This document shows, in pieces, positions 11,982-64,000 of a DNA stretch of 64,000 nt. Both the position numbers and the translations under genes were made by a program. Every line of letters starts with the position of its first letter. The stretch's first letter is position 1. The stretch lies in NCBI RefSeq assembly GCF_003334765.1, contig NZ_QOWT01000005.1; one strand, 5' to 3'. The stretch is from Escherichia coli (lineage in GTDB: Bacteria; Pseudomonadota; Gammaproteobacteria; Enterobacterales; Enterobacteriaceae). Under the pieces are notes generated by a model, which had not been told where the DNA came from, did not search any database, and saw only the letters and a program-made list of their open reading frames with translations.

Positions 11982-12545
11982 ATGATGTCATCTCGTTTGA
12001 TTATTGCGCTGATTATCATGCTCTTAGCCCAGGGTGTGCAGGCACACAATTTCGTCACTGGCAAAACGGTTACCCCCGTTTATATCCAGGAAGGCGGCGA
12101 GCTGCTTCTGAATAGCGACGACGAAATTCACTACCAAAAGTGGAACAGCACACAGCTGGCGGGAAAAGTCCGCATTATCCAGTATATCGCCGGGCGTAAG
12201 TCGGCGAAGAAAAAGAACTCACTGTTAATTAAAGCGGTTGAAGCGGCAAACTTTCCGCAGGATCGTTTTCAGCCCACCACCATTGTGAACACCGATGATG
12301 CCATCTTTGGTACTGGCTATTTTGTCGTTGGCAAAATCGAAAAAAATAAACGCCGCTATCCGTGGGCGCAATTCGTTATTGACGGCAATGGACTGGGACG
12401 CGTTGCCTGGCGGTTGCCGGAGCAGAGTTCAACCATTCTGGTGCTGAATAAAGACGGGCAAATTCAGTGGGCAAAGGACGGCAGCCTGACGCCGGAAGAG
12501 GTAGATCATGTCATTGCGCTGGCGCAGAAACTGATCAATGAATAA
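11982..12545 (+). CDS. YtfJ-family periplasmic protein (187 aa) with signal peptide
   Basis: Signal peptide MMSSRLIIALIIMLLAQGVQA|HN. Long collinear similarity to E. coli YtfJ as I recall it (WNS.QL.GKVR..Q.IAGR.SAK, TTIVNTDDAI, DKDG..QWAKDG.LTPEEV). GGAG SD 5 nt upstream. Confidence 0.8.
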   Translation: MMSSRLIIALIIMLLAQGVQAHNFVTGKTVTPVYIQEGGELLLNSDDEIHYQKWNSTQLAGKVRIIQYIAGRKSAKKKNSLLIKAVEAANFPQDRFQPTTIVNTDDAIFGTGYFVVGKIEKNKRRYPWAQFVIDGNGLGRVAWRLPEQSSTILVLNKDGQIQWAKDGSLTPEEVDHVIALAQKLINE

Positions 12546-12575
12546 AAAATTCAAAGGATTGAGGGTGTTAGTGAG

Positions 12576-14722: not shown

Positions 14723-14723
14723 A

Positions 14724-14750
14724 CCCGCCGTGGCGCAACACCACGGCGGG
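14724..14750. terminator. bidirectional terminator hairpin between convergent operons
   Basis: Perfect 10-bp GC stem cccgccgtgg / ccacggcggg with a 7-nt loop, placed exactly between the stops at 14722 (+) and 14757 (-). Confidence 0.75.
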
Positions 14751-14756
14751 CTCACA

Positions 14757-15929: not shown

Positions 15930-16177
15930 TATTTATTCTCCAGCCATGGAAGTAGAGTTTCCATTAATTGCGCAGGGGTTTTGACATCCAGCAGAATATT
16001 AATAGGAATGGAAATATCGAATCTGTCTTCCAGCATCATTAAGAGATCCATCACTTTGATCGACTCCAGGCCAAGATCGTTGACGAGATCGCTGTCGGGC
16101 TTAATTTCCACACCGTTTTCGACCAAATCCTGTAAACAGGAAAGGATGTAATCCATTACTATTTCACGATTTACCAT
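15929..16177 (-). CDS. acyl carrier protein (82 aa)
   Basis: DLGLESIKVMDLLMMLEDRF is a phosphopantetheine-attachment motif. Its stop overlaps the downstream start (TAATG). Confidence 0.85.
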   Translation of the reverse strand: MVNREIVMDYILSCLQDLVENGVEIKPDSDLVNDLGLESIKVMDLLMMLEDRFDISIPINILLDVKTPAQLMETLLPWLENK

Positions 16178-46286: not shown

Positions 46287-46823
46287 ATGTTACGCGATAA
46301 ATTTATTCACTATTTTCAGCAATGGAGTGAACGCCAGTTAAGCCGTGGCGAACACTGGCTGACACAACACCTGGCGGGGCGTTCTCCGCGTGAAAAAGGC
46401 ATGTTACTGGCAGCGGCGGTGTTCCTGTTTAGCGCCGGATATTACGTCCTCATCTGGCAGCCGTTGAGCGAACGGATTGAGCAACAGGAGACGATGTTGC
46501 AGCAGCTGGTGGCGATGAACGCGCGACTGAAGAGTGCCGCGCCGGATATTATTGCGGCGCGAAAATCCGGCACGACAACGCCAGCACAGGTATCGCGGGT
46601 CATCAGCGACAGTGCTTCGGCGCATTCAGTGGTCATTAAGCGAATAGCCGAGCGCGGGGAGAATATTCAGGTCTGGATAGATCCGGTGGTGTTTAATGAC
46701 CTGCTGAACTGGTTAAAAGCACTGGATGAAAAATATGCGCTGCGAGTGACACAAATTGATGTCAGTGCTGCTGAGAAGCCTGGGATGGTGAATGTGCAGC
46801 GACTGGAATTTGGGCGGGGGTAG
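46287..46823 (+). CDS. gspM: T2SS inner-membrane protein GspM (178 aa)
   Basis: Single TM (MLLAAAVFLFSAGYYVLIW). Last gene of the gsp block. Confidence 0.88.
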   Translation: MLRDKFIHYFQQWSERQLSRGEHWLTQHLAGRSPREKGMLLAAAVFLFSAGYYVLIWQPLSERIEQQETMLQQLVAMNARLKSAAPDIIAARKSGTTTPAQVSRVISDSASAHSVVIKRIAERGENIQVWIDPVVFNDLLNWLKALDEKYALRVTQIDVSAAEKPGMVNVQRLEFGRG

Positions 46824-47039
46824 GTATTGCCATTTCCTTAACCCCACCTGATAACCCTTAGCCCAATGGTGAGTGCGGAACTGTCAAACCCGCTCACCGG
46901 GCTGAGTTTCGATGTAGCAAGAATTATCTCCCTCCAGACCACCACGGAATATTCGGTAACACTGAAGGAACCTGTTTTTCACCATGTAGCCTTCGTTAAT
47001 CGACACCTTTCTAAGACTGTAAAGATGCTTAAGTGTTTT

Positions 47040-47879
47040 GACACATTATGATTATTAATAGTTGTAATAAATCATTGAGTAACAATTGATAGGTCAAAAC
47101 ATATAGGATAATTCTTATGTGATCTGTATTTTGTGTAGCCTGGAAATTAGTAAAATTACTGGAGATAATCAGAAAGGGAATTTCAAATAAGCATAATAAT
47201 TTCCAGGGAAACTATTCGTCGATTTTAAGAAATGTCTGCTCAGGTATATCTACTGAGGGATAATGCTGGCTGTAACGCTGGTTAAAATAAATGCACAAAA
47301 TAATCAAGATGTATATTTTAATTGACGAAAATAATTACTCACGGAATTATTAATGGGGCTTAAATAACACCGTTTAAATGTGATGTAAATCACAAATGTG
47401 ACTGTAAAGAGGGTGCTGTAGATATAAATAAGAAGTACATGAGTGAATTTTAAATAGGGAAATAGTTTCTCGCTAAACAATTTATTGGTAATCAATCGCA
47501 TGCGTTCTGGTTTGAAACAGATTGCAGGTATTGTTACGCATAAAATCCATAGGGGGTATTATAATCAAGTAGTTAACAGTAAGAACAAAAAATAATTTCC
47601 TGAGAAATTAACTCTACATTCTAAAACGGCCAGTTTTCTGAAATTACCAGAAGACCGAATACATTCATGCCTGAAGAATGGATTAGAAGAAACGAGACGG
47701 AAATAGATCTATTTATCCCTGCGGAAATAATTTCTGCTGAAATTTTTTGCGGCTATTAAAAAGGTCAAACCGTCTGAGTAAATTTTATCCAGTTACAAAT
47801 AAGCATTACCTCCAGTGTATTGGTAGCTGTTAAGCCAAGGGCGGTAGCGTACCTGAAGAGATTAGGATCACATCATCAA
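47040..47879 (+). promoter_or_regulatory. kps region 3 promoter and long untranslated leader
   Basis: About 840 bp of strongly AT-rich non-coding DNA upstream of kpsM. In characterised group 2 loci the region 3 promoter lies roughly 740 bp upstream of kpsM. The exact transcription start was not mapped here. Confidence 0.55.
47840..47847 (+). promoter_or_regulatory. ops element (GGCGGTAG) within JUMPstart, RfaH loading site
   Basis: Exact GGCGGTAGCGT 32 nt upstream of the kpsM ATG, the position described for group 2 capsule loci. Confidence 0.85.
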
Positions 47880-48656
47880 ATGGCAAGAAGTGGATTTGAA
47901 GTCCAGAAAGTCACCGTAGAGGCATTATTTCTACGAGAAATACGAACACGCTTTGGTAAGTTCCGTCTGGGATATCTGTGGGCGATTCTCGAACCCTCTG
48001 CGCATTTGCTGATACTGTTGGGCATTTTTGGTTACATTATGCACCGCACGATGCCAGACATCTCATTCCCGGTGTTTTTACTTAATGGCCTGATTCCCTT
48101 TTTTATCTTTAGCAGTATCAGCAATCGTTCTGTAGGTGCTATTGAAGCGAATCAGGGGCTGTTTAATTATCGACCAGTAAAACCCATCGATACGATCATT
48201 GCGCGTGCATTGCTTGAGACACTGATTTACGTTGCTGTTTATATATTGCTTATGCTTATCGTCTGGATGGCAGGCGAATATTTCGAAATAACAAACTTTT
48301 TACAACTTGTGCTCACCTGGAGTCTGCTGATCATTCTTTCATGTGGCGTCGGCTTAATATTCATGGTCGTTGGCAAAACCTTCCCTGAAATGCAAAAGGT
48401 CCTGCCGATACTGCTTAAGCCGCTGTATTTCATCTCCTGCATCATGTTCCCTTTACACTCGATTCCAAAGCAATACTGGTCATATCTACTCTGGAACCCA
48501 TTAGTGCATGTCGTAGAGTTAAGCCGCGAGGCAGTTATGCCTGGCTATATCAGCGAAGGCGTGAGTCTGAACTACCTTGCAATGTTCACTCTGGTCACCC
48601 TGTTCATCGGTCTGGCGTTATACCGAACGCGTGAAGAGGCAATGCTGACATCATGA
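47880..48656 (+). CDS. kpsM: capsule ABC transporter permease (258 aa)
   Basis: MARSGFEVQKVTVEALFLREIRTRFGKFRLGYLWAILEP is recognised as KpsM. The ORF-track extension to 47820 would cover the ops site and is rejected. Confidence 0.95.
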   Translation: MARSGFEVQKVTVEALFLREIRTRFGKFRLGYLWAILEPSAHLLILLGIFGYIMHRTMPDISFPVFLLNGLIPFFIFSSISNRSVGAIEANQGLFNYRPVKPIDTIIARALLETLIYVAVYILLMLIVWMAGEYFEITNFLQLVLTWSLLIILSCGVGLIFMVVGKTFPEMQKVLPILLKPLYFISCIMFPLHSIPKQYWSYLLWNPLVHVVELSREAVMPGYISEGVSLNYLAMFTLVTLFIGLALYRTREEAMLTS

Positions 48657-49330
48657 TTAAAATTGAAAATTTGACGAAGTCATATCGCACGCCAGCGGGT
48701 CGACATTATGTCTTTAAGAATTTAAATATTGAAATCCCTTCAGGAAAAAGTGTTGCCTTTATTGGTCGCAACGGAGCGGGTAAATCAACGTTACTGAGAA
48801 TGATTGGCGGCATTGACCGCCCCGACAGTGGAAAGATCATCACTAATAAAACAATATCATGGCCAGTCGGCCTCGCAGGTGGATTTCAGGGAAGTTTAAC
48901 CGGACGCGAAAACGTAAAATTTGTTGCCCGGTTATACGCGAAGCAAGAAGAACTAAAAGAGAAAATTGAGTTTGTCGAAGAATTTGCCGAACTCGGTAAG
49001 TACTTCGATATGCCGATTAAAACTTACTCATCTGGTATGCGATCGCGTTTAGGCTTTGGTTTAAGCATGGCATTTAAGTTTGATTATTATATCGTCGATG
49101 AAGTAACCGCAGTCGGTGATGCCAGGTTTAAAGAAAAATGCGCTCAATTGTTTAAAGAAAGGCATAAAGAGTCTAGTTTTTTAATGGTTTCACATAGTTT
49201 GAATTCATTGAAAGAGTTTTGTGATGTGGCCATTGTGTTTAAGGATGATAATGCGGTTGGTTTTTATGAGGATGTTCATGAGGGGATAAAATCATACCAA
49301 ATAAATGAAAATACAACTATTAAGATTTAG
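48653..49330 (+). CDS. kpsT: capsule ABC transporter ATPase (225 aa)
   Basis: Walker A GRNGAGKST, signature YSSGMRSRL, Walker B YYIVDE. ATGA overlap with kpsM. Confidence 0.95.
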   Translation: MIKIENLTKSYRTPAGRHYVFKNLNIEIPSGKSVAFIGRNGAGKSTLLRMIGGIDRPDSGKIITNKTISWPVGLAGGFQGSLTGRENVKFVARLYAKQEELKEKIEFVEEFAELGKYFDMPIKTYSSGMRSRLGFGLSMAFKFDYYIVDEVTAVGDARFKEKCAQLFKERHKESSFLMVSHSLNSLKEFCDVAIVFKDDNAVGFYEDVHEGIKSYQINENTTIKI

Positions 49331-49516
49331 GCCATTACGTGAAGATATAATTTACACTCCCCAAGTTAATACATATAAGTAATTATATTAATAAATATTT
49401 ATAAAAGGCATCTAAAGAATAGATGCTTAGAGCCACTTAAACTGCTGTATTGTCTAAATGTAAGAAATAACGAAATGGGTTTTTGGTGATTACTGTACTC
49501 AAAAGGAGTCAAGAAT

Positions 49517-52500
49517 ATGAAATCAATATTGTATTATTTAGAGCCACGTACAGAATTAAATGACAAATTATTTCGCTATGCAACACTACGCTCTTATCTA
49601 CTACCTGAAATTGATGGCCTTAGGATAGCTGATAAGAGCCTCGATTTTAAAATGATCGTTTCTCGTACGATTTATAATAAAGCAAAACAAAATAATTTAA
49701 AAATGGAGGGTATCGATTTTATAATTATTGATGAAGATGTATTTGAAAAGAACTCATATCTGAAGAATATTAATGTTAGTAATGAATTATATCATGGGAA
49801 TTTAAATATAAAGGCTAATGAAGAACTAAAATCAATCATATCTGCTTGCCTTCCTGTTGATTATAAACCAGATATTATTATTTCATATGAAAGCCCAGCT
49901 CCATTTTTTAAAGAGATATTTCCATCATCTTTACTTTTAAACGCTATGTTTGGAATTTTTTCAAGGGCACCATTTCCTGCATATGGTTTATTAGACCCAT
50001 GTGGTTTGTATGAATATTCATATCAATATAAATATGCTGATAAAATTCGTGCTGAGGAGATTTCAGAAGAAGAAAAGGAAGTTATAAAATTACTCAGAAG
50101 ACAAAGTTCAAGAGCACTTGCTGCTTATCATCCTCTCAAGAAATATATTTCATCATTATATGAAAAATATGATCGACTTGTTGTATTAGCATGTCAAGTG
50201 GATAACTATTTTTCTTATAATAGTTGTACCAATTATCCATCACAATATGCGATGGTGGAAGATGTTCTTTCTCAAGTTCCATCAAATATTGGTGTTATAG
50301 TTACAGAACATGGCTATAAAAGACAAATAAGTGACGAGCAAATTGAGTCTTTAAATGAAAAATACAGTAATTTTATATATTTTTCTAAAAAAGATGTATT
50401 CACACCAAGTCAATTTATTCTTCCTTATGTAGATGGTGCTTTATCAGTCTCGTCATCGATTGGTTATCAGGCTGCTTTATGGCAGATTCCATATTTTGGT
50501 CTTGGAAAATCACAAGTCGATGTACTCTGTTCAAATACATCATTAATGAGCTTCGTTAATGATGTTGAAAAAGGCATAAAGATTGATCGTGATAATATTC
50601 TTTATGTTTTACTTTCAAAAGTTCACTTATCACATAAAAATGATTTGTTTAATGGAAAATCTTATCTAAATAAGTTGAAGGATTTATTTAATAAGTTTAC
50701 CTCTAATTGCGACGAATATGAGTATTTTAACACTAAAAAAAGTATTGATGAAGTTCGAAAAGATATCATCTGTGGCAACAGAGAATGGTTACTGAAAAAA
50801 AACTTTATTGACTCAAAATTAGTTCCTGAAGTAGACCATTTACGTGTTGCAATGTCGCATTCAAAAGCGATCTCTTATGATCTTTTTGATACTCTTGTTG
50901 AACGTGATTTTGTTGAACCTCATGAATTATTTAATCTAATTGAATCCCGTGTACGTAATGAGTTAAACAATAAAAACTTCCCTTTCTATTATGTAAGACG
51001 ACAAGCCGAAATTGACTTGCGCAGAGAGACAAGAGGTGAGTTTGAAATTACTCTCGATGAAATTTACGAAAGATTTCCAAGATACTTTGATCTTACTTTA
51101 GAACAACTAGAGAAGATAAAAAATATAGAAATAGATGCTGAAGTCGAACTCGTTCATCCGAAAAAAGAAATGGTTCGTGAATTTTATTTTTCTCAAATGA
51201 TTTGTGAAAGTGTATCTATCATTACAGATATTTATCTTTCTCAGAATGTTATTGAGCGTATTTTACAAAAAGTAAAAATTAGTGGTTACAATAAATTATT
51301 GGTTTCAGCAGAAACTAAAACAAGAAAACATAACGGAACTATTTATCCTGAATATTTGAAATATATAAGAGATAATTTTGATATTAATGCAGGACAGGCT
51401 CTTCATGTCGGTGATAATAAACAAGCTGATGGTGATATGGCTAAAAAACATGGCATAAAAACATATGTATTTCAAAAAGCGATTGATAATTACAAAAAAT
51501 CTTTAATTGCTGATATTTTACGTTCCAGTATTAATCATCCAGGTATTTCGAGTTCTGTTATTAATGGTTTGTTTGCTAACAAATATCACGCAGGACACTG
51601 GTTTAAAATTAACAAGGAATCAATTTTTAATGCTGACGAATATAATTATGGCTATATGGCAATAGGGCCTCTTGTTGTTGGCTTTACTCAGTGGTTGTAT
51701 CGGCGGGTTAATAAATTAGGTATCAAAAAATTATATTTCTTATCCCGCGATGGATGGATTCTTAAAAAAACATTCGATTATTTTTATCCTGAATCATCAT
51801 CTGGCATCAAGACCGAATACCTGTACAGCTCTCGTCGAACTGCAATGGTAGCATCGTTAAGAAATATTGATGATATTATTGAAGTTGCCTCTCAAAACTT
51901 CAATGCTAGAAAGCTAAGTGACTTTTTATCTACTCGTTTTGGGCTGGATGTGGATACTGTTAAAAAATCTGTTCTTGAAAAATATAATTACAAGCATGAC
52001 ACTATTGTTTCTCCTTATTTTGAATTTGGAAAGCTGATTGGTTTTTTAAAAGATATTCATCATACAATATTGTCTAATGCAAAAAATGAACGTGAAAGCT
52101 ATATCGATTATTTACGAGAAACTGGATTTGAAAATGATTGCTTAAATGGCGGTGCTACTGTTGTTGATATTGGTTACAGTGGTTCCATGCAATATTATTT
52201 AAAAAAAATACTGCAATGCCCTTGTGTGAACGGATTTTATTTTTTAACACATCACCATAGTCGTGATTATTTTTCAAATGATCATTTTGAAGGTTTCTTG
52301 CAAAATCTTGATGATCATAAGATCGCTTATAGACATGGATTAAATGATCATGTGTTTATTTTTGAAGCAGCATTAAGTTCCCCTGAAGGAAGTCTGATTA
52401 AAATGGAAGGGAAAGGTCAAGAAAGAGAAATGATTTTTCTCGAGGCAGAAGAAGAGATTGTAAGAAAAAATGCTCTATTAGGAACACATCGTGGCGTAAT

Positions 52501-53026
52501 GGACTTTGTTCATGATATCAAAACTCGTTTTGGTTCTTACTTTAAATACATTGAATTTTCTCCTATTCTTTCTTCTCAACTTATTTTGAATTTTGCGAAT
52601 AATCCCAACGGTATAGATGCAGGGATGTTTGCTTCTCATGAAGTCGAAAATGTTTTTGGTGGGGGGTCTGTATGCTTAATTTCGCCTTTACTAGATTGCT
52701 ATAAGGACTCTAATGGCACCATTAACCCTAAAATTATCGATGAGTTATTAAAAGCATCTAAATGGAAGAGAGGTGCCAGTGCTTATTATAACTTAGTCAA
52801 TGGAACTCAACCGCGAGTTAATCCTGCTAAAATGCCAGCGCCATCTGTTAACCCAGTTGTTGTGAAGCAAACGCCACAAACTACTTATGCACATCCTTTA
52901 AAGACAACTACGCAGCGTAAACTTGCTAAGTTAAAAAAAGACCCATATTTATTCTTTAATGATTCCCAAAAACCTCTTTTAAAAAGTTTACGATTGTTCT
53001 TCAAAAATACATCAAAGCTTAATTAA
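49517..53026 (+). CDS. serotype-specific region 2 multi-domain protein, putative capsule polymerase (1169 aa): N-terminal KpsC/KpsS-like domain, central HAD-phosphatase domain, C-terminal domain of unknown fold
   Basis: Strong AAGGAG SD. About 30% GC by eye. HAD motifs ISYDLFDTLVERD (D455) and HVGDNKQADGDMA (D633). N-terminal VIVTEHGY...SVSSSIGYQAALW parallels the KpsC/KpsS motifs in this window. Confidence 0.7.
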   Translation: MKSILYYLEPRTELNDKLFRYATLRSYLLPEIDGLRIADKSLDFKMIVSRTIYNKAKQNNLKMEGIDFIIIDEDVFEKNSYLKNINVSNELYHGNLNIKANEELKSIISACLPVDYKPDIIISYESPAPFFKEIFPSSLLLNAMFGIFSRAPFPAYGLLDPCGLYEYSYQYKYADKIRAEEISEEEKEVIKLLRRQSSRALAAYHPLKKYISSLYEKYDRLVVLACQVDNYFSYNSCTNYPSQYAMVEDVLSQVPSNIGVIVTEHGYKRQISDEQIESLNEKYSNFIYFSKKDVFTPSQFILPYVDGALSVSSSIGYQAALWQIPYFGLGKSQVDVLCSNTSLMSFVNDVEKGIKIDRDNILYVLLSKVHLSHKNDLFNGKSYLNKLKDLFNKFTSNCDEYEYFNTKKSIDEVRKDIICGNREWLLKKNFIDSKLVPEVDHLRVAMSHSKAISYDLFDTLVERDFVEPHELFNLIESRVRNELNNKNFPFYYVRRQAEIDLRRETRGEFEITLDEIYERFPRYFDLTLEQLEKIKNIEIDAEVELVHPKKEMVREFYFSQMICESVSIITDIYLSQNVIERILQKVKISGYNKLLVSAETKTRKHNGTIYPEYLKYIRDNFDINAGQALHVGDNKQADGDMAKKHGIKTYVFQKAIDNYKKSLIADILRSSINHPGISSSVINGLFANKYHAGHWFKINKESIFNADEYNYGYMAIGPLVVGFTQWLYRRVNKLGIKKLYFLSRDGWILKKTFDYFYPESSSGIKTEYLYSSRRTAMVASLRNIDDIIEVASQNFNARKLSDFLSTRFGLDVDTVKKSVLEKYNYKHDTIVSPYFEFGKLIGFLKDIHHTILSNAKNERESYIDYLRETGFENDCLNGGATVVDIGYSGSMQYYLKKILQCPCVNGFYFLTHHHSRDYFSNDHFEGFLQNLDDHKIAYRHGLNDHVFIFEAALSSPEGSLIKMEGKGQEREMIFLEAEEEIVRKNALLGTHRGVMDFVHDIKTRFGSYFKYIEFSPILSSQLILNFANNPNGIDAGMFASHEVENVFGGGSVCLISPLLDCYKDSNGTINPKIIDELLKASKWKRGASAYYNLVNGTQPRVNPAKMPAPSVNPVVVKQTPQTTYAHPLKTTTQRKLAKLKKDPYLFFNDSQKPLLKSLRLFFKNTSKLN

Positions 53027-53034
53027 TATAATGT

Positions 53035-53062
53035 GAGTCGCACTATGGTGTGACTCTTTTTT
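53035..53062 (+). terminator. rho-independent terminator-like hairpin between the two region 2 genes
   Basis: gagtcgcac-tatg-gtgtgactc followed by tttttt, 9 nt after the stop at 53026. Confidence 0.6.
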
Positions 53063-53144
53063 ATATGTCAGTGATAGTTATTAATGAAATATTTAATGCG
53101 CGAAGGTGTACGATTTTTACAATATTTAGAGACTGGTGGGTCAA

Positions 53145-54134
53145 ATGAGTATTTCTTTGAAAAATATTGATTTTGCTAAAGGTCCTGTTGATTCCCTCCA
53201 TCATGATTATTACTTATGGCGAGGGAAGAACATTGAGGATAAAAGACTTTTTCTCGTTTTCTCATCTCGGGGAGCAGGTCCTGGAGAATTTAGTTTTTTC
53301 AAAACTTTTGATGCGCTTAATGTAAATGTTTTGCATGTTACACCCTCTGATTTTTCATGGTACCAAAAAGGGTTAGTCGGTTTAGGGAGTGATTTGCCTT
53401 CTGCATTTAAAGCCCTATCTGACCGAATAGATAATTTCTGTATTTATCATAAAATAAAACAAATTATCTGTGTAGGGGCTTCCATGGGAGGATATGGTGC
53501 TTTAATTTATGGGGCTTTATCTAGTAGAAAAATAAAAACAACACTTATTCTTTTTGGCACCGAAACAATATTAAAACTTCCTTATTCTAAAAGTTCTGAG
53601 AGTGAATTTGATATTCTCAAAAAATTTAAAGATGTAAGGTTTCTAGATTATTCTGATCTTGATGTGAATATGATATTTGGTGAGTTTGATATTGTAGATA
53701 CTTATTGTGCTTTATCGATGCGACATGATCGAAATTTTTCATTTTTTTCATGCACTAGCGCCTCACATGTTGTTCCGGAATACTTAAATAGACAAATTGG
53801 AATTGTTAATTTTTTTACAGACTTCTTATCGGGTGGAAGATCTTTTATTGGAAGAGGCCACATTGCTTCTGAGCTTTATCCTGAGGATATTTCTCCTCTT
53901 CTGTTCTCGAAACAATTTACTGAGGAATACAATAATGCCCTCCTCTGTTGCTTGAAAAAATATCCTTCATTTGGGTTTGCATGGAATAGATTAGGCGTAT
54001 ATTTACACAATATAGGAGATCTGGCTGGGTCTTTAGCAGCATTAAAAAGAGCATTTTTCATCAACCCTGATTATCCAAATACAATTGAGCATCTTAACTC
54101 GGTAAGAAATAAACTAAAAACTAAAAACTTTTAG
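53145..54134 (+). CDS. region 2 alpha/beta-hydrolase-fold protein with C-terminal TPR-like repeat (329 aa from ATG 53145; GTG alternative 53136)
   Basis: Nucleophile elbow GASMGGYG, followed in order by a candidate Asp (GEFDIVD) and His (SASHVVPE). The C-terminal AWNRLGVYLHNIGDLAGSLAALKRAFFINPDYPN is TPR-like. Confidence 0.65.
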   Translation: MSISLKNIDFAKGPVDSLHHDYYLWRGKNIEDKRLFLVFSSRGAGPGEFSFFKTFDALNVNVLHVTPSDFSWYQKGLVGLGSDLPSAFKALSDRIDNFCIYHKIKQIICVGASMGGYGALIYGALSSRKIKTTLILFGTETILKLPYSKSSESEFDILKKFKDVRFLDYSDLDVNMIFGEFDIVDTYCALSMRHDRNFSFFSCTSASHVVPEYLNRQIGIVNFFTDFLSGGRSFIGRGHIASELYPEDISPLLFSKQFTEEYNNALLCCLKKYPSFGFAWNRLGVYLHNIGDLAGSLAALKRAFFINPDYPNTIEHLNSVRNKLKTKNF

Positions 54135-54211
54135 TTTTTATGTATACTTGTGTGAGGAATGAATAGCAATATATCTCAATATCTAAGAGCTGGTTTTTAT
54201 ATCGTTCATAG

Positions 54212-55420
54212 TTATAATTTTTTTACTTTTATTTGTTTTCTTACTCTATCCCCATAATAAACCCCATTAACCTGCGTCTTCACCAATAAATACCCCCGAA
54301 ACTTCTTAAACAGTTTCATATCCGGTTTAAAATCGGCCTGCCAGAACTGGTGCAAATGCCCTTGATACGTCAAGCCTTTGATGTCGTACAGGGCATTGCC
54401 CATCACTTTGAGTGGTTTGTTGTGAATCAGCGCAGATATCCCCGCCGTACTGTTAATTGTCACCACCGCTTTTGCGTGGCGTAACAATTCCGGCATCGGG
54501 AGATCGTGCACATAAATGACTCGTTCCCCTAAGCCATATTCCTTACTCAACCGCTTAATTAATGGTCGATAGAGTCTGTGACCACGATCCATTGGATGGT
54601 GCTTGATCACCAAATAACTTTCTTTCGGTGCTTTACGTGAAAATGAGTACATGACTTCATTAATATAGTCACGCACATCGTTATAATTGCTGTGGTTACG
54701 AATCTGGCTATCGTTATACACCTGCAAAACGGCAAGATAATAACGCTGATCCAGCTCATTCATTAACCTCGGCAATACCTTACGCTGTGTTACCTTGTAA
54801 AGTTGCTTGCGCCAGTATGCACGAACCCAGCAACGTGCTTCATACCAGGGGGAAAACGATTTATGGTGGCGGTAGCGAGGGAACTCATGGCGGTAATGCC
54901 AGCCCATCAGGTAATACCACATCGCATGACCTATACGTTTCATCGTTGAAGGTTTTAAGTTCTCAACGTGCGGCGCAGGCATATCTGGTAACTTACGATA
55001 AAAATCCGGATCGCGCGGTAGCGATGAATATGCGTTTACTCCGCCTTCTTCAACGGTTATAAATTGCGGGCGTAAATATCCTTCTTCAAATGCCAGAAAG
55101 CGGAGCCCTTTCGACTTTGCCCAGCGTTTTGCTTCTTTATGCAATGGGCGACAGTCACCAAAACAGAGGATGGTATCAAAGTCATATTGCCGGTGGAGAT
55201 CCCGTAACCATCCGGGGAACTCTTTCGGCGTTTGGTAGTAGGCCAGGTATTGTCGATGGCGGCAGTAAAAACGATCCCCACCGTTGAATACAACATTCAC
55301 AGCGTTACGTCCTAATGACTCTAACCATTCGGCGACGTCATTGAAAAAAGGTCCCATCGGCCCCTGCAATAGCAGATATTTTTTACCGGATAATAAAACG
55401 GTTAGTGCATTACCTTGCAT
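54212..55420 (-). CDS. kpsS: capsule beta-Kdo linker transferase KpsS (402 aa)
   Basis: MQGNALTVLLSGKKYLLLQGPMGPFF... and VIKHHPMDRG are recognised as KpsS. Confidence 0.92.
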   Translation of the reverse strand: MQGNALTVLLSGKKYLLLQGPMGPFFNDVAEWLESLGRNAVNVVFNGGDRFYCRHRQYLAYYQTPKEFPGWLRDLHRQYDFDTILCFGDCRPLHKEAKRWAKSKGLRFLAFEEGYLRPQFITVEEGGVNAYSSLPRDPDFYRKLPDMPAPHVENLKPSTMKRIGHAMWYYLMGWHYRHEFPRYRHHKSFSPWYEARCWVRAYWRKQLYKVTQRKVLPRLMNELDQRYYLAVLQVYNDSQIRNHSNYNDVRDYINEVMYSFSRKAPKESYLVIKHHPMDRGHRLYRPLIKRLSKEYGLGERVIYVHDLPMPELLRHAKAVVTINSTAGISALIHNKPLKVMGNALYDIKGLTYQGHLHQFWQADFKPDMKLFKKFRGYLLVKTQVNGVYYGDRVRKQIKVKKL

Positions 55421-55454
55421 AAATAATTTGCGTAATAGTCAACTATGAAATTGT

Positions 55455-57482
55455 TTAGCCAAATCTGACCTTGCAGAACATAATTAATTTGCGGTAATAG
55501 CGTATTACCCGTCCCGCTTTTTTTCGGGTAATAAACATCGGCTTACGCGGCGTCTGGATTAAATATTCCGCAGCTTCCTCAACCGTAATAGGCTGTAGCC
55601 GTGTTGGGTGAATATATGTTGGGTAAACAATCAACGCCTGATAGATCAAGTCTGCTATCGTTAATTTTTGCTCGCGGCGCGGGCAATGATGTTCATCAAC
55701 GGTTAAACCCCAACCGGCATAGAAGGGCAGGCCGTAACAATGAACTTGCTTGCCATGTAATAACGCTTCAAACCCGGACAATGATGTCATGGTGTGCACT
55801 TCATCTGCGCGCTGAATGCATTGAATAATATCGGCGCCCAGTGCCTGATAATCAGCGAGTTCAGCAGTCAGTTCTGCCGGAATATCGCCCTTGCGATTCC
55901 CCACCAGTACATCCGGGTGCGGTTTATAAACAATGTAGGCGTGCGAATTGCGCTCGCGTACTGTGCGTAATAACTCAAGGTTGCTCTTAATCGAGACAGT
56001 GCCTGTTTTAATGGAGGCATCGTCCTCTACCTGACCCGGCACCAGGATAACTTTTTTATCTTTGGCTTCGGCTGGTAGAGAGAAATCGGCTCCCAGGTTG
56101 TACTTACTCAGTTTGCTTTCAACCAGTCGCTGGCGTAATTTTTCAGCTCGCATCTTCTGCGCCAGCGTTAGCTGGCTATGATTCAGCAGCACTTCCAGAT
56201 CGCTGGGGCGTGTGGCGTCATAGTAAATACCGCGTTTATCCAGCACCAGCGATAGCGGCGGCAGCAGGTCAGAGCCAAGTCCGGATGAACGCAGAAAACC
56301 ATCTTCCATTCGCCATAACGGCAGTGATTTTCGCTGCGCTTCGGCTCGCCATTGCTGTTCTCCCTTTACACCCCATACCACGCAGGCGCTCGCCGCAGTA
56401 CAGCGACGTGAAAAACTCAGCCGGTTTGTTGCCGTTTGCAAGAAAGGTTTCAGGATCGCTGACTTCCACAGCGTTAAGCCTGGCGCCCATAAATAACCAT
56501 CACGCTGTTGCAGATGTCGACGTTGTAATTGCAGCCATTGCAGCACGGTAAATAGATCGCTTACTTCTCCCGTTTGCGGATCGATATAGCGACAGTAACG
56601 CAGGTATGCAGCGGCAAAAAGTTCCTCCAGCGTGGCAGAACCGCGTCGGGCAGATAACAAAGCGGACTGTGGATGACGATCGTCGGTTAAACCCCAACCT
56701 GCATACCAAGGCTGGCCGAAACATGTTACTGGTTTTCCTGCCAGCAAGGCTTCAAAGCCGTACTGGGAGGTCACGACGTAAACCTGGGAAACGTGTCGCA
56801 ATAGCGACTGCGGGCTGACATTCTCGGCAATCAAACGTACTCGTTGCGTGGCACGCAGATCAGCGAAATAACCTGTTTTCTTTCCTTCCAGTACATCTGG
56901 GTGCACCTTCACCCAAATTTCGGCTTGAGGATTTTCCGCCATCGCGGCTTCCAGCATGGCAGCAAACTCATGCGGGCCAGCATTGCCATACGTCACTGAC
57001 ATATCATTAAATGTCTGATCGACAACCAGAACGATGTCTGCACGTTCTGACTCATCAGCCACAAACGCAGGTGCCAGGTTATATTTCGACAAATCTCCGG
57101 TCACGATGGTGTGCATCGCTTCTCTGGCCTGGCTTATCAGAGCTGTATTTCCGGCTTTATCCTGTACCAGTTTCTCCAGTGCTGAAGGCTTGCTGGCATC
57201 GTAGTAAATGCCACAATCATCCACCACCAGAGAAAGCGGCGGCTCGCCATTGACGCCAAGATCCAGCGAACGCACAAATCCATCTTCCAGACGAATGACG
57301 GGTTTTCCCGCTGCTTTGGCGATGGCGACTGGTTTCGCCGCGCTGGGACGATGTCCCCACACGGCGATAGCATCAACTTCTTGCGGAACAGGGCGCAGCA
57401 GAGAAAGTTTCTGGCACGGTTGCGCCAGAAATTTCTCCAGATGCGGAATACGCCAGATGCCAGGCGAGTAAATGCCAATCAT
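55455..57482 (-). CDS. kpsC: capsule beta-Kdo linker transferase KpsC, duplicated domains (675 aa)
   Basis: Two repeats, each with (V/Y)K(V/P)HPDV ... TS(Q/L)(Y/S)GFEALL ... YAGWGLT. Confidence 0.93.
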
Positions 57483-58219
57483 GCGTTTTCAGCCAGTTCC
57501 TGTGCCATCAGGGCGCGCACTTTTTCCAGGCATGCTGGGGTGTCGACGCCCGGACCGGTTGCGGCAACCTCAAATGTGCGGATGTTGATCCCTGCGCTCA
57601 TCAACCGCAGCTGCTCCAGTGATTCTGCCTGCTCTGGCATGGACTCCGGTAACTGACTGTAGTTTTGCAGCACATCGCGACGATAAGCGTAAATACCAAC
57701 GTGTTTCAGGTAGCGCGCTTTTTCAGCATTACGCGGATAGGGAATCGGCGAACGGCTGAAATAAAGCGCATCCTGGCGGGTATTTACCACCACTTTTACC
57801 GTGCTTGGCTCGGTCGCTTCTTCGGCAGAAATCGCGTGGCATAGCGTTGCCACTGGCAACGCGGGATCATCACGCATTCCTTGTAACAGCGTTTCTACAT
57901 CCCGCGGGCGAATCATTGGTTCATCGCCCTGCAGGTTAATGTAGATATCTGCCTCGACTTTATGCATCACCTCGACCAGCCGATCGGTGCCGGATTCATG
58001 ATCGTTGCGCGTCATGATGGCTTTCCCGCCAAACGCCTGCACGGCCTTTTCAACACGCGGGTCGTCTGTTGCCACCCAAACTTCCGCAACGCCCGCCACC
58101 TGTAACGCACGCTCGTAAACATGCTGGATCATCGGTTTACCAACAATATCGAGCAGTGGCTTACCCGGCAGGCGCGAGGAGCCATAGCGAGCCGGAATGA
58201 CAATAACTGCTTTGCTCAT
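57479..58219 (-). CDS. kpsU: CMP-Kdo synthetase, capsule-specific (246 aa)
   Basis: [22 protein letters not shown] is KdsB-like. ATGA overlap with kpsC. Confidence 0.95.
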
Positions 58220-58228
58220 TTCAACTCC

Positions 58229-59905
58229 TTACAAAGACAGAATCACTTTTGCACCCACCGCCAACTGGTAAAGGATGGTGGAAATACCGCGAGTAACTTC
58301 AATGTTTTTCGATTCATATTTCGGCAGAACCATAATCTCATCGCCCGGTTTGAGTGAATCCACATCTTCTGCGTTGACGGCTGCACCGTTCTGACGAATG
58401 ACGATAATTCTGGCGTTACCCGATTTCTGCGTCAGGCCACCACATTTCTCGATGTAATCCTCGGTGGTCATACCCTTCTGCCAGCTCACCGCGTTCGGGA
58501 ACAGCACTTCGCCATGAACCATAACCAGCGATGTTTTCTCCGGAATATTGATGACGTCGCCATCTTCAAGCAGAACAGAATCAATATTGGATTCGTTGAG
58601 GATCACTTCACCTTTCGGAACAACGGTGCGTGCTTTCGCCACAAAGCGGCTGATCAGTTGTGCTTCCTGCATTCGCAGGCTGGCTTCTTCTTTGGTGGAT
58701 GACTGGGCAGAAAGTGATGCTTCCTCCAGCTTTTGCAGCGAGAGATTCAGCATCTCTTTCTGACGCTGAGCCACTGATGGGCGATAAAGCTGAACTGCGT
58801 TCATCTGCGACATGCTGTTCGGGCGGACTTTTTCCAGAACCGCACGCATAGTGGAACCATAAGGCAGTACCATGGCATGTTCACCGGAGTGTGCGCCTTC
58901 AACCCGCACCTGAATGGTGCCGGCATAGCGGTCAGTGCTCACGATTAAGGTATCGCCATTTTGCAACATACGGCCTGGCGCAGAACTGATCGGATAGTAT
59001 TCGCTGCGTTTTTGCAGCCCCTGTTTACGCATAATCGTAATGTGAGTCGCGCCAGGCTTAGGGCGCGCCCAGCTCAACGCTTCCGTTACGGGAATGCTGC
59101 TTTCGCGGAACTCAAAGTCGTAGCTGTTAAAGACATCGCCCTGAACGCTGAAAGTATGCTGACGCGGCCCGACGATGATGGTGTCACCATCGGCGAACTG
59201 CGAAAGCCCCAGTTTGCCGTTCAGCAGGAAGTCGTACAGGTTGACGTTGGAGCGCACGCGGTTACCGCGCTTGACCACAATATCAACGTAACTTCCGCGC
59301 TCTGGATCAACGCCGCCAGCCTTGATCAGATAATTGAGTAACGAATCAGACGTCACACCGCCATACAGACCAGGATTACGCACAAATCCGGTCACGTACA
59401 CTTTTACTGGCTGCGCCTGTAATAAGGAGGCGTAGACGTTGACGTTGGACTGGTATACTTCCTTCACTTTGGATGTGACCAGGGCATTTAGCTGACTATT
59501 ACTGACGCCAGCAACTTTCACCGGACCAACGTTCGGCAGGAAAATATTACCTTTGGGATCAACCTGTAACGCACCATCAAAGGTGAACGCACCCCACAAG
59601 CGAACCTGAATGCTATCACCCGGATTCAGAATATAGTCAGGGTTGAATCCTACCGTCGCACCGCTATCTGCGCTGGTGCCGTTGAAAAGTTGAGCACCAA
59701 ACATACGGCTCATTACCACCGGCGGTGCGGGCGGCGGGGTATTGTCGAAGCCGCTCATGTTTTGCGTATCCGACTGTTGCCCGTTCAGAATACCGGTAAG
59801 CGGCGCGGCTCCTGTAAGGTTTGGGTCGGCGTTAATATCAATGGCCGCGCTGGCCTGCGCCGCGTGACAGGCGGCAATCAGTAAAATTGATTTAAATAAT
59901 TTCAT
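58229..59905 (-). CDS. kpsD: capsule export OPX-family periplasmic/outer-membrane protein (558 aa)
   Basis: MKLFKSILLIAACHAAQASA signal peptide. Recognised as KpsD. Confidence 0.93.
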   Translation of the reverse strand: MKLFKSILLIAACHAAQASAAIDINADPNLTGAAPLTGILNGQQSDTQNMSGFDNTPPPAPPVVMSRMFGAQLFNGTSADSGATVGFNPDYILNPGDSIQVRLWGAFTFDGALQVDPKGNIFLPNVGPVKVAGVSNSQLNALVTSKVKEVYQSNVNVYASLLQAQPVKVYVTGFVRNPGLYGGVTSDSLLNYLIKAGGVDPERGSYVDIVVKRGNRVRSNVNLYDFLLNGKLGLSQFADGDTIIVGPRQHTFSVQGDVFNSYDFEFRESSIPVTEALSWARPKPGATHITIMRKQGLQKRSEYYPISSAPGRMLQNGDTLIVSTDRYAGTIQVRVEGAHSGEHAMVLPYGSTMRAVLEKVRPNSMSQMNAVQLYRPSVAQRQKEMLNLSLQKLEEASLSAQSSTKEEASLRMQEAQLISRFVAKARTVVPKGEVILNESNIDSVLLEDGDVINIPEKTSLVMVHGEVLFPNAVSWQKGMTTEDYIEKCGGLTQKSGNARIIVIRQNGAAVNAEDVDSLKPGDEIMVLPKYESKNIEVTRGISTILYQLAVGAKVILSL

Positions 59906-59928
59906 CACAAACTCATTCAGCGACAGCG

Positions 59929-61077
59929 TTAGTCTCGGTGATCTTCAATAACAGCCAGCAACAGTTTCAGGGTGCCGAATAGCAGGCAGCACACCAGTAA
60001 CCAGCAGGCGATCAAATAAGGGATATTTGGAAAAGACGATTCCTGCGGCAACTGTGGCGAACTGATCACTGACAGCACCTTGAGCTTACGAGCCGCTTCT
60101 ACACGGGTCTTTTCAATGGAGGTCAGGGTCAGTTTGTACAGCTCGGTGTTGAACTCTACTTTTGATTTGATTTCTTCAAAATCCACCGCCATACGGTTTA
60201 GCTTGTCACCCTGCGGCGCTGTGATTTTGCTTTTTTCTTCGTCAATTTGTGCCTGCAATGACTGAATCGCATTACGCGCACTCACAACTTGCGGGGCGTC
60301 TTCACGCAGATACGTCAGCAAGTTCCGCAGGTCCGCTTCCATCTGGATCTTCTGGCCCATCAGCGTATTGACTAACGTGCTCGCCGCCTGTGCCTGTGCC
60401 TGTGGATCCAGAACGTTGTTGTTGTCCTGATAAGAGAGCAATTCCGCTTTGCTGGCGTCCAGACGCTGGCGTGCCTTTTCCATCTCCGTTTCTGCAAAGG
60501 CAAGCTGGTCACGCGCGATGCGATGTGACATCTCATTGATAAAGCGCTCTGACTCTTTCAGCACGGTCTGGTTAAACTTAAGCGCAAACTCCGGGCTAAA
60601 GCCCTGCGTCTGAATATTCAGTAATCCGGTTTTATCGTCATACGAGACGTTGATACGGTCCTTGTAGTACTTCAGGAAGCCTTCTGCAGTTTCATCCTTG
60701 CTAAGATGATTAAGAAAATCGAGCCCGCTGTGGCTAAACGCTTCACGAAAATTTAGTTGCTTATCCAGTGCCGCCAGCATATCCGGCGAGTTGATGTACT
60801 CTTTCAGATACAACGCATCTTCTGCGGAACTGGGGTTAGAGGCACCCAGAAGCAGACCAAAATTCAGGCTGCCGCTGTTTAAATCATCCGAGCGTTTAAT
60901 GGCGACTTTCGACTCGCTCATATAGCGAGGCTGGCTGAAGATAGCCAGATAGATCAGCAGCACCGCCATCGGTGCCAGAATGATGATTTTCGCCAGGTGT
61001 TTTTGGATATCTGCCAGTGAGATGGCAGACAGACGAGCACGCATCCAGGATACGGCAGACTTCACTTTTATCAACAT
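59929..61077 (-). CDS. kpsE: capsule export PCP-3 inner-membrane adaptor (382 aa)
   Basis: N- and C-terminal membrane segments flanking a coiled-coil periplasmic region. Recognised as KpsE. Confidence 0.93.
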   Translation of the reverse strand: MLIKVKSAVSWMRARLSAISLADIQKHLAKIIILAPMAVLLIYLAIFSQPRYMSESKVAIKRSDDLNSGSLNFGLLLGASNPSSAEDALYLKEYINSPDMLAALDKQLNFREAFSHSGLDFLNHLSKDETAEGFLKYYKDRINVSYDDKTGLLNIQTQGFSPEFALKFNQTVLKESERFINEMSHRIARDQLAFAETEMEKARQRLDASKAELLSYQDNNNVLDPQAQAQAASTLVNTLMGQKIQMEADLRNLLTYLREDAPQVVSARNAIQSLQAQIDEEKSKITAPQGDKLNRMAVDFEEIKSKVEFNTELYKLTLTSIEKTRVEAARKLKVLSVISSPQLPQESSFPNIPYLIACWLLVCCLLFGTLKLLLAVIEDHRD

Positions 61078-61148
61078 GTAACGATTATCAAAGTTTCAGT
61101 GGGGCGCAAACTCAATGAGAGACTAACCTCTCGCACCCCGTTGCTTAA

Positions 61149-62132
61149 TTAGTCGAAAATGCGCACAAGGCCAGTGACTTTATTTGCCTTGTTGGTCACC
61201 AATAACGTTGAGACGCGGTGCTTTTGCATTTTTTCTTCCGCTTCAATGATCATGGTGTCTTCCGGTAGCGTCAGCGGTTCACGTGTCATCATCTGCGCAG
61301 CCGTGGCGGATGTCAGAGAATCCTCTTTTTCCATAAAGCGACGCAGGTCACCGTCGGTGATAATGCCCGCTAGCCCACCTTCTGCGTCTTCTACCATCAC
61401 CATTCCCTGGCATCCGCTGGTGATACGTTGAATCACGGTTTTAAATGACGCATCCAGCTGTACCGCAGGAACATCATGCTGCATGACATCAGCAACGCGG
61501 GTCAGCAGGCGACGACCTAATGAACCGCCCGGGTGATAGCGCGCAAAATCATTCGGCATAAATTTGCGTTGGTGGATCATGGCAATCGCCAGCGCATCGC
61601 CGATCGCCATCGTCAGCGTGGTAGACGTTGTTGGTGCAAGATTATTCGGGCAGGTTTCATTCGCCATGTGGAGTTCCAGCACGGCATCAGCATTTTTCGC
61701 CAGCGTGGAATTTCCATTATTGGTAATGGCGATAATTCGGTTGCCGAAATTTTTCAGTGAAGGAACTAGCTTGAGGATTTCATCCGTTTCACCGCTGGCA
61801 GAAATAAGGATCAGAAGATCGTAAGGCGTAATCATGCCCAGATCGCCATGGAAAGCTTCTGCAGGATGAATAAAGAAACTAGGCGTACCCGTAGAGGCCA
61901 GCGTCGCTGACATTTTACGACCGACATGCCCTGATTTACCCATTCCCGAAAGAATAACGTGCCCTTTACAGTTCATTATCAAATTAAGGACACGCTGGTA
62001 CTGCCCGGAATCCAGTTGTTTAGACAAGTTTTGTAATGCTGCGCCTTGTTCTGCCAGAGTCTGGCGAACAGAGGTAATTAGATATGGATCGATAGTACTG
62101 CTCTGGTCATCAGGTAAATGTCTTTCAGACAT
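61149..62132 (-). CDS. kpsF: arabinose-5-phosphate isomerase, capsule-specific (327 aa)
   Basis: MSERHLPDDQSSTIDPY. SIS domain (GMGKSGHVG) plus tandem CBS domains. AAGGAG SD before the ATG at 62132. The GTG at 62168 is rejected. Confidence 0.93.
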   Translation of the reverse strand: MSERHLPDDQSSTIDPYLITSVRQTLAEQGAALQNLSKQLDSGQYQRVLNLIMNCKGHVILSGMGKSGHVGRKMSATLASTGTPSFFIHPAEAFHGDLGMITPYDLLILISASGETDEILKLVPSLKNFGNRIIAITNNGNSTLAKNADAVLELHMANETCPNNLAPTTSTTLTMAIGDALAIAMIHQRKFMPNDFARYHPGGSLGRRLLTRVADVMQHDVPAVQLDASFKTVIQRITSGCQGMVMVEDAEGGLAGIITDGDLRRFMEKEDSLTSATAAQMMTREPLTLPEDTMIIEAEEKMQKHRVSTLLVTNKANKVTGLVRIFD

Positions 62133-62760
62133 ATCAGCTCCTTTGCACGGAAATAATGCCACAGTCACAACAAACCCGAACCCACTATAATTTATTTATG
62201 CTAAATCAATGGGTTGTAACAAAATTTTTAATGAATATAAAACCATGGTCAGTCCATGCTTATATGCAGGACTTATCACCTTCTTATTAAGTCGCAATGT
62301 CTCATGGAGGTGCGAAGATGCTGCAATATTACAGGCGAGAAGGGGAACCAAATTTTGCCCACCTATTTAACACACCCCTACATTATGAACAAGGAATTTA
62401 GGATTTTTATCATTTATTAAAATGTTTCCTACTTGACTATTAAACCAAAAAACAATTTATCAATTGATTATTTCCTTGTAAAAAAAGAACGTATGACCAT
62501 GTTATTAATAAATAAAACACGTAAATAATGGTGATGTTGTTTTGTGATTAACTATTTAAGAGTGGCATAATAAACAAGTTGACAATTTCTATGTAAAGAA
62601 GAAGAAAATAATAAAATTTTAGCGGTGACTATTGAATGATATGATAGTTGTGGTGTTGATTATTTCTGGTAATGAATGCGGAATTAAATCTGGCCGGATT
62701 GTATTTTTGCTATATCTATTTTTCAGGAGATTATTATTAAATATAAAAATAACAATGGTG
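62133..62760 (-). promoter_or_regulatory. kps region 1 promoter/leader region
   Basis: Very AT-rich about 600 bp upstream of kpsF. The characterised thermoregulated (H-NS/SlyA/IHF) promoter lies about 225 nt upstream of kpsF in group 2 loci. Sites were not mapped here. Confidence 0.5.
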
Positions 62761-62930
62761 ATTATCTCCGGTTGACCTGGAGTCACGTATGCCAGCGAGT
62801 GCTTTCTTCCGGGCCTTCCTTCACTTCAGAGAAAAAGAGGCAATCATCAGGCTCTTTTTGAGTCATATGCGCCGATAATCAACTGTCTTGAACGTAAAAA
62901 TTATGGAGCAACATGATGCTACGATTCATT

Positions 62931-63140
62931 TCACTCTTCGTTCTTTCTGAGCATTGCGTTCAGGATGGTCAGCAATTTACGCATACTGTCAACCAGCGCC
63001 ACTTTTTTGGTTTTTCCGGCTGCTGACAGATGCATGTAAAATGCCTTTATCACCGGATTAAACCAGGTTACCACAAGCGCTGCCATGTGCAGGGCTGCTC
63101 TTGCCTCCGTACGCGCACTGGCGTCGTTCGGCCAGCAGAT
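62931..63140 (-). mobile_element. 3' remnant of an IS110-family transposase gene (pseudogene fragment)
   Basis: Minus-strand translation ...ARAALHMAALVVTWFNPVIKAFYMHLSAAGKTKKVALVDSMRKLLTILNAMLRKNEE* matches the conserved C-terminus of IS110-family transposases (YMAAL...NP..K.FY.RL...GK.KKVALVA.MRKLL.ILNAML). There is no upstream catalytic domain. Confidence 0.6.
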
Positions 63141-63270
63141 ATGTGTGGGATAACAGGGATGTTATGTGAACTGAACTGTGTTTTGTTAGCGGGGGGATGT
63201 TTATTGATGATTCGGGAGTGTTTAAGACCTGATGGCGTTATGCTCCCAAGTTTATTTTATATAAAGATCC

Positions 63271-63299
63271 AAAAGCAAAAACCCGCCTTGTGGGCGGGT
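63271..63299 (-). terminator. rho-independent terminator, probably the native pheV terminator
   Basis: On the minus strand: acccgcc-cacaa-ggcgggt followed by ttttgctttt, 13 nt downstream of the tRNA-Phe-like CCA end. Confidence 0.6.
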
Positions 63300-63311
63300 T
63301 CTTTAGAATAG

Positions 63312-63333
63312 TGGTGCCGGAATCGGAATCGAA
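63312..63333 (-). repeat. degenerate copy of the 3' end of tRNA-Phe (pheV), genomic-island attachment direct repeat
   Basis: Minus strand reads TTCGATTCCGATTCCGGCACCA, against the E. coli tRNA-Phe 3' end TTCGATTCCGAGTCCGGGCACCA (one substitution, one deletion). The rest of the tRNA is absent. Confidence 0.75.
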
Positions 63334-63443
63334 AATTTCTTTTATCATATTGATATTAATATAATTTGTTTGGTTTGATTAAAAATGTACCCTCAATTAT
63401 ACCCGCAGTCCCTTTTGATATCGAAAGGGAATCACACTCGGGA

Positions 63444-64000
63444 TCAGGCTGAGAGCACAGAAGGAAAGTACCTGGCTATTATATCGTTAATTCTGTCAAT
63501 CAGTTCCAGCCTTTTGAAAGTGATGTGTGCAGATCCCTTCTTAAAGTATTTAATGATGAACATCTCGTCTTCATAGCGCTCTTTACCCTGAACGGACTGG
63601 ATGTGACCATCCAGACGAATAGTGATGTTTTCCCGGTTGTCGGGGATCGGTTTGCCGCTGAACAGATGTAGCATTCTTTCCAGGTCGACGAGTCGGTCAG
63701 TCTGTTGCCCGGTGATAAGATGAAACCCCCACCGGTCCCACCTCACCAGGTTGTTGACGATAATTTTACTGCCAAATTTGCAGGGGCAATTGGTTTTGTA
63801 ATTCCAGCTCAGTCCCCTGAAGACGTTGATCACCCCTCGCTCAAACACCTCATCCTTATTCTGGTGTAGTTGTTCAAATGTGATCAGAATGTTCGCTTCA
63901 CTGATTTCCGGAAAATTATCGTACTCCAGTGACCGGTACCATGTATCACGGGCCTGTGCATCCATTAAGGAAAGCATCCCTGAACGTTGCATCAGGTCAC
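63444..64000 (-). CDS. DUF4942-type island protein, possibly 5'-truncated by window edge
   Basis: Frame is open to the window end (ATG at 63992 is possible). VFERGVINVFRGL...KFGSKIIV...LVDLERMLHLFSGK...KKGSAHITFKR aligns, as I recall it, with DUF4942 proteins that end CP4-like/pheV-type islands. Confidence 0.6.
   Translation of the reverse strand, partial: DLMQRSGMLSLMDAQARDTWYRSLEYDNFPEISEANILITFEQLHQNKDEVFERGVINVFRGLSWNYKTNCPCKFGSKIIVNNLVRWDRWGFHLITGQQTDRLVDLERMLHLFSGKPIPDNRENITIRLDGHIQSVQGKERYEDEMFIIKYFKKGSAHITFKRLELIDRINDIIARYFPSVLSA

Follow-up and report, generated by a model that had tools for sequence, protein, structure and literature searches.

A very probable distal attR of a pheV genomic island, with the native pheV terminator, forms the boundary between the island and the kps capsule locus in Escherichia coli

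The 64,000-nt stretch of Escherichia coli DNA analyzed here (the window) carries, at positions 63312–63333 on the minus strand, a 22-nt sequence (pheV′) that imperfectly duplicates the 3′ end of the tRNA-Phe gene pheV and is very probably the distal attR of a GI-pheV/PAI V-family genomic island with a P4-type integrase. This core, together with the native pheV terminator beside it, is the boundary between the island and the group 2 capsule (kps) locus. The arrangement of kps and island at pheV is already published (PMC11537424; PMC10272209; PMC7387560), and what is added here is modest: an uncommon core that combines a T with a missing G, and an argument that the missing G is island-borne.

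The minus strand reads TTCGATTCCGATTCCGGCACCA from 63333 to 63312. The corresponding nucleotides 54–76 of E. coli K-12 pheV, the 3′ end of which is ...GGTTCGATTCCGAGTCCGGGCACCA, are TTCGATTCCGAGTCCGGGCACCA. The window core matches 21 of these 23 positions, the differences being a substitution (G65>T, at 63322) and a deletion that leaves one G fewer in a run (GG for GGG, at 63318–63317). Alignments to the pheV genes of K-12, LF82, and D8 delimit the copy: the match ends exactly at T54, and the DNA 5′ of that point shows no resemblance to the rest of the tRNA. The fragment does not amount to a tRNA gene or pseudogene with a cloverleaf recognizable by a tRNA finder or covariance model, nucleotides 54–76 alone being present; ARAGORN identified no tRNA genes in the window, and Rfam identified no tRNA there even at E values up to 10. 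Nothing in the window exceeded an Rfam gathering score, and the weak matches all came from the terminator hairpin described below. The 22-mer occurs once within the window with up to three mismatches allowed, whereas zero occurrences are expected by chance and 0 of 100 shuffled sequences gave a match. Aligned with one another, the two repeat copies form an imperfect direct repeat of 23/22 nt, and the core is thus a direct-repeat copy of the pheV 3′ end in the 19–23 nt range expected of an attR. A preliminary description of this DNA had reported a 22-nt near copy with one substitution, one deletion, and no remainder of the tRNA, and the alignments bear it out on each point.

The DNA that follows the core on the minus strand (63311–63265) is native pheV-downstream DNA left behind by integration, as judged by a terminator scan, folding, and its match to K-12 and LF82. 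A spacer of 12 nt separates CCA from the first arm of a stem, close to the 13 nt past the repeat stated earlier for a clean terminator. The scan predicts an extended stem-loop at 63303–63277 with an 11-pair stem (six of the pairs being GC), a loop of 5 nt, and a T-run, all on the strand of the upstream gene, as in an intrinsic (rho-independent) terminator. In its core stem, ACCCGCC (63299–63293) pairs with GGCGGGT (63287–63281), so that the terminator reads ACCCGCC-CACAA-GGCGGGT and then TTTTTGCTTTT, with the T-run extending to 63271 and followed by GGATCT. An 86-nt segment that includes the terminator has a predicted folding energy of −22.2 kcal/mol (z = −2.9). The same terminator sequence stands after intact pheV in K-12 and LF82, and identity to both genomes reaches 48 nt beyond CCA; for K-12, where there are four differences in 71 aligned positions, it extends through the terminator to 63265 (...TTTTGCTTTTGGATCT) and then ends. 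A polymorphism directly after CCA, CT-ATTCTAAAG versus CTAATTCTTAAG, was considered as a correlate of kps and rejected because CFT073 has kps together with the K-12 form.

On its other side, the core is joined to the non-coding distal arm of the island (63334–63443, minus strand), which lies directly upstream of the repeat and was recognized by its similarity to the attR arm of O111:H− 11128. Beyond it is a DUF4942 gene (63444–64000, minus strand; Pfam DUF4942, E 1e-59; annotated as such by RefSeq in D8, TUM9803, and GF43) that is cut by the window end. This gene is the last of the CP4-type module of the island (DUF4942, DUF957, CbtA/CbeA, antirestriction, Ag43). The arm and the DUF4942 gene are nearly identical to the DNA that precedes the O111:H− 11128 attR, which has the same position and the same island arm as the window core. 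The window arm resembles that of the second TUM9803 island, described below, and is also found in Shigella flexneri and E. coli ECMA0423 beside a different terminator, where the downstream DNA runs into an IS4-family element; we suspect that these copies are located at pheU. Island-free K-12 and LF82 do not contain the arm. Of 5426 complete E. coli genomes, 1407 contain at least 80% of a 100-nt junction spanning arm, core, and terminator; only 42 records match it at 99% identity or more. As previously proposed, the DNA to the right of the repeat is island DNA, and the DNA to the left is beyond the repeat, continuous with native pheV-downstream DNA.

Only 667 nt of the island lie within the window; for the integrase and intact pheV, the evidence comes solely from near-identical strains. 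In D8, TUM9803, and GF43, the opposite end of the island, outside the window, has a P4-type tyrosine integrase beside the partner repeat. The preliminary description had looked to an intact pheV and an integrase further to the right, and both are present in D8 and TUM9803. D8 is 100% identical to the window over 62900–64000 and carries an island of 64 kb with the CP4-type module, Ag43, pgt, and pap genes. The island ends 64 kb to the right of the repeat in a P4-type tyrosine integrase adjoining intact pheV, yqgA, and speC, and the island's own terminator, GGACCTCCACGGAGGTCCGTTTTT, directly follows the rebuilt pheV (1570–1620 of the extracted D8 locus). The same post-pheV island arm also follows K-12 pheU (300–350 of the extracted locus), with the pseudogene yjdQ downstream; the arm behind K-12 pheU is an island remnant, and K-12 pheU is therefore not an empty site.

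The closest strains, TUM9803 and GF43, do not have a simple island but tandem arrays. TUM9803 is the closest match, with 100% identity over window positions 46800–64000, and its array (874947–1042046, 167 kb in total) consists of two P4-type islands, of 30 and 63 kb, separated by a conjugative element. At 30 kb to the right, the integrase of the 30-kb first island adjoins a 50-nt pheV fragment (nt 27–76). This fragment is the distal repeat of the conjugative element that follows it, which is 73.7 kb long and of the SPI-7/PFGI-1 type. After the conjugative element come a second attR, TTCGATTCCGAGTCCGGCACCA, and the 63-kb second island with ireA, papGII, and resistance genes; the second integrase and intact pheV are 167 kb from the window repeat. 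RefSeq calls a 78-nt tRNA-Ser at TUM9803 905243–905320 (31244–31321 of the extracted locus), but this interval is actually the pheV fragment plus unrelated DNA, and ARAGORN detected no tRNA in it. In GF43, two islands stand back to back and are joined by a CFT073-type attR, TTTCATTCCGAGTCCGGGCACCA. As a result of these tandem arrangements, the partner repeat is not the intact gene but the 50-nt pheV fragment in TUM9803 and the attR of the other island in GF43. Identity among the four integrases compared, from D8, CFT073, and the two TUM9803 islands, is 96%–97%. SPI-7/PFGI-1-type elements use the same tRNA-Phe gene, and one of them is part of the TUM9803 array, but they have a 50-nt repeat (pheV nt 27–76) rather than one of 22 nt and a different integrase and arms; the window repeat is not of their kind.

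No sequenced strain identical to the whole window was found. Window positions 1–25000 are 100% identical to B771 and PF9285 and 99.7% identical to TUM9803 and GF43; positions 25001–47000 are approximately 100% identical to GF43 and TUM9803 and 98.6% identical to B771. Such mosaic relatedness points to a recombination boundary within or close to the glc region. The annotation of near-identical strains places a gene cluster at approximately 6900–16000, between yghR and yghO, that includes a lipopolysaccharide biosynthesis protein, lptF and lptG paralogues, serine palmitoyltransferase (spt), an acyl carrier protein, an epimerase, and a fatty acyl-AMP ligase.

To the left of the native pheV-downstream DNA is a kps-linked flank (62169–63264, minus strand) that comprises the kpsF upstream region and an IS110-family transposase remnant (62931–63113; annotated in D8, LF82, CFT073, and TUM9803). 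Alignment to LF82 indicates that this flank is not island DNA. The group 2 capsule locus occupies 47820–62168, based on the open reading frame (ORF) list with names from RefSeq homologues in D8 and LF82: kpsM and kpsT (47820–49330) and region 2 (49517–54134) are on the plus strand, and kpsS, C, U, D, E, and F (54212–62168) are on the minus strand. In the ORF list, the last conserved chromosomal gene is yghD (gspM; 46287–46823, plus strand), and K-12 homology stops at its stop codon, which is TAA in K-12 and TAG in the window. The kps segment extends from this stop codon (46823) to 48 nt past the pheV CCA (63264/63265), a distance of 16.4 kb with sharp edges, and it replaces a spacer of the type found in K-12 and O111 11128, where approximately 100 nt lie between yghD and the pheV terminator. 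Except for short chance pairs, no direct or inverted repeats flank kps. With these edges, no integrase, and no flanking repeats, kps is a separate acquisition.

Region 2 of the capsule locus has a GC content of 30%–34% and only two ORFs. The first encodes 1169 amino acids, of which residues 424–786 match Bcs3, the capsule polymerase of H. influenzae type b (PDB: 8a0c/9h50, E 4e-28); this protein also gave weak HAD-phosphatase matches and no Pfam match at E values up to 0.01. The second encodes 332 amino acids with weak alpha/beta-hydrolase and TPR signals. At least 80% of window positions 46800–64000 is carried by only 22 complete genomes.

Comparison with island-free junctions fits the repeat as an island end. 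K-12 has neither island nor kps, and its order is pheV, terminator, yghD. LF82 and 208 other complete genomes have kps without the island; the order in LF82 is yqgA, intact pheV, terminator, IS110 remnant, kpsFEDUCS, region 2, kpsTM, and yghD. From T54 to window position 63100, LF82 differs from the window by the two core changes and 1 nt in a C-run, and LF82 and the 208 other island-free genomes cover window positions 62800–63311 at approximately 98% identity. A synthetic empty site, in which K-12 yqgA–pheV was joined to the window sequence after CCA, was covered end to end in 209 of the 5426 complete E. coli genomes. Island-free strains thus have one flank of the repeat, as their pheV-downstream DNA, but lack the other, as expected of an attR. 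O111:H− 11128 lacks kps, and yghD directly follows its island end, repeat, and terminator. Island and kps are found together in the window, D8, and TUM9803. All four combinations therefore exist, and kps is neither located between the island repeats nor bound to the presence of the island. From these junctions, we conclude that island and kps occur independently of each other and that the repeat lies between them. Two proposals made from the window sequence gain support here: that the capsule locus is outside the island repeats, since the repeat and native terminator lie in between, and that there were at least two separate acquisitions, given the island without kps in O111 11128 and kps without the island in 209 genomes.

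The window repeat agrees with described attR sites of GI-pheV islands (the PAI V536 family) in its locus and island family, with a P4-type integrase, CP4-type module, and Ag43, as well as in the 22/23-nt core starting at T54 of pheV and the position of kps immediately beyond. Table 1 of PMC11537424 gives attR for 41 islands, including a 23-bp type, TTCGATTCCGAGTCCGG-CACCA, and a 19-bp type, TTTCATTCCGATTCCGGGCACCA, and that paper places the island end before kps. The window core is one G short, like TTCGATTCCGAGTCCGG-CACCA, the commonest GI-pheV attR listed there, but it adds G65>T; among the attR sequences of that paper that were compared, the T is present only in the 19-bp intP4.1 type. The combination of the T with the missing G is uncommon in comparison with GI-pheV attR, with the 42 records given above. 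In CC95, both configurations were described downstream of kpsF, with 22-bp repeats and at least 14 excisions (PMC10272209), and a 22-bp pheV′ was reported upstream of the K15 kps cluster (PMC7387560). Older definitions and reviews treat the capsule as cargo of PAI V536 or PAI-CFT073-pheV (PMC7545054), which is not supported by the present data. Excision dependent on the integrase has been reported for the GI-pheV family (PMC10272209; PMC7545054, citing Hochhut, 2006).

The junction is also similar to those of phage P4 and CP4-type cryptic prophages, which have their attachment sites at the 3′ ends of tRNA or tmRNA genes: a tyrosine integrase stands beside the tRNA, the 3′ end is restored, and a short direct repeat marks the far end. 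In contrast to P4 and CP4, the element here is a virulence/fitness island without phage morphogenesis genes; its repeat is imperfect, and its crossover position is proposed below from junction sequences.

The origin of the imperfection was addressed by comparing cores among arms and hosts. When one genome per species was scanned for exact matches, the one-G-short core TTCGATTCCGAGTCCGGCACCA was present at 30 loci, in species representatives from across the Enterobacterales; the hosts include Shigella, Klebsiella, Enterobacter, Pantoea, Erwinia, Pectobacterium, Xenorhabdus, Yersinia, Edwardsiella, and Providencia. The left arms of these loci are of at least three kinds, including tRNA fragments of 47–50 nt, and one Pantoea locus is a full-length tRNA-Phe sequence with the G missing. 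The T variant (G65>T) was present in none of the 30 other species representatives. Occurrence of the 22-mer at unrelated loci had been raised as a possible objection to the attR reading, but at the other loci and in the other species the core is the attachment site of related tRNA-Phe elements and so does not refute it. Window-type arms and related GI-A-type arms have a GG core in each of four contexts (the pheV terminator, a different terminator, conjugative-element DNA, and the integrase arm of another island), whereas the CFT073-type arm has GGG beside both the pheV terminator and the integrase arm of another island. The CFT073-type core departs from the tRNA inside the T-loop (TTTCATT versus TTCGATT). 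The state of the G-run therefore follows the island arm and not the target DNA, and we regard the missing G as probably island-borne, not a product of decay. When the preliminary description called the tRNA end "degenerate," it was correct about the imperfection, but for this reason the term itself may not fit. On the basis of approximately 10 junctions, we consider the chances about even that the one-G-short core is the attP half of the island, common to widespread Enterobacterales tRNA-Phe elements, and that exchange takes place in the last 7 nt, GGCACCA, and not in the T-loop; a missing G that belongs to the island's own site would put strand exchange within those 7 nt. The literature searched gave no attP sequence or crossover site for GI-pheV.

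The usual picture for tRNA-integrating elements is that the fragment at the far end is the displaced 3′ end of the native gene. Applied here, it would make pheV′ the original pheV 3′ end, separated by exchange in the T-loop and decayed after integration through a later G>T change and loss of a G, which was the implicit model of the preliminary description. A GGG run is prone to slippage, and the T variant belongs to a small group only (42 records with at least 99% identity, 0 of 30 other species representatives), so the T could well be a local mutation. The same one-G-short core stands, with the same arms, beside four unrelated downstream sequences and recurs in 30 species representatives, however, and another arm type always has GGG; recurrent identical decay would not track the arm. 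The T-loop difference of the CFT073-type core also argues against an overlap in the T-loop for integrases that are 96%–97% identical. We therefore regard post-integration decay as possible but rather unlikely. If the core is instead island-borne, G65>T would be an attP/attR variant that may make excision less frequent and contribute to fixing the island beside kps, although it could equally be a local mutation.

Two other explanations concern the boundary itself. According to the definitions of an 80-kb PAI V536 and a 123-kb PAI-CFT073-pheV, kps would be part of one composite pheV pathogenicity island whose components were acquired together. Reviews count the capsule as pheV-island cargo (PMC7545054; PMC7387560), and kps does adjoin the island and has an atypical GC content, but the repeat and the native pheV terminator separate the two, kps stands beside an unoccupied pheV in 209 complete genomes, O111 11128 has the island end and no kps, and both states occur within CC95 (PMC10272209); a joint acquisition is very improbable. 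The match of the core to pheV could also be put down to chance, or to a generic T-arm/acceptor motif of many tRNAs next to an unrelated hairpin. TTCGATTCC is indeed a common T-loop motif. The shuffled sequences gave no match even with three mismatches allowed, however, and the match to K-12 and LF82 carries on for 48 nt beyond CCA, into their specific pheV terminator. The alignments already refute a chance resemblance, to which we assign almost no probability.

With the repeat taken as the distal attR, the island would have integrated when its own attachment site recombined site-specifically with the 23 nt at the 3′ end of pheV. This would leave the tRNA gene with a complete 3′ end beside the integrase, tens of kilobases to the right, and with an island-borne terminator behind it; at its far end, the island would carry a second copy of the core, joined to the original pheV-downstream DNA with its intrinsic terminator. 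The kps locus and the IS110 remnant would have been present before or have arrived independently, most likely by homologous recombination, because there is no integrase and there are no flanking repeats. The displaced terminator would now stop read-through from the DUF4942 module of the island towards kps region 1, since both of these and the terminator share the minus strand. The repeat may still be a substrate for integrase-mediated excision.

These data set the true boundary of the pheV island, and the capsule locus should therefore not be counted as island cargo. This explains how the island can be gained or lost without a change of capsule type and is relevant to the annotation of pathogenicity islands and to reconstructing how ExPEC acquired their virulence genes. 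The boundary itself has already been published for CC95, K15 strains, and 41 reference genomes; a repeat imperfection that follows the island rather than the target bears, in addition, on the position at which the integrase cuts.
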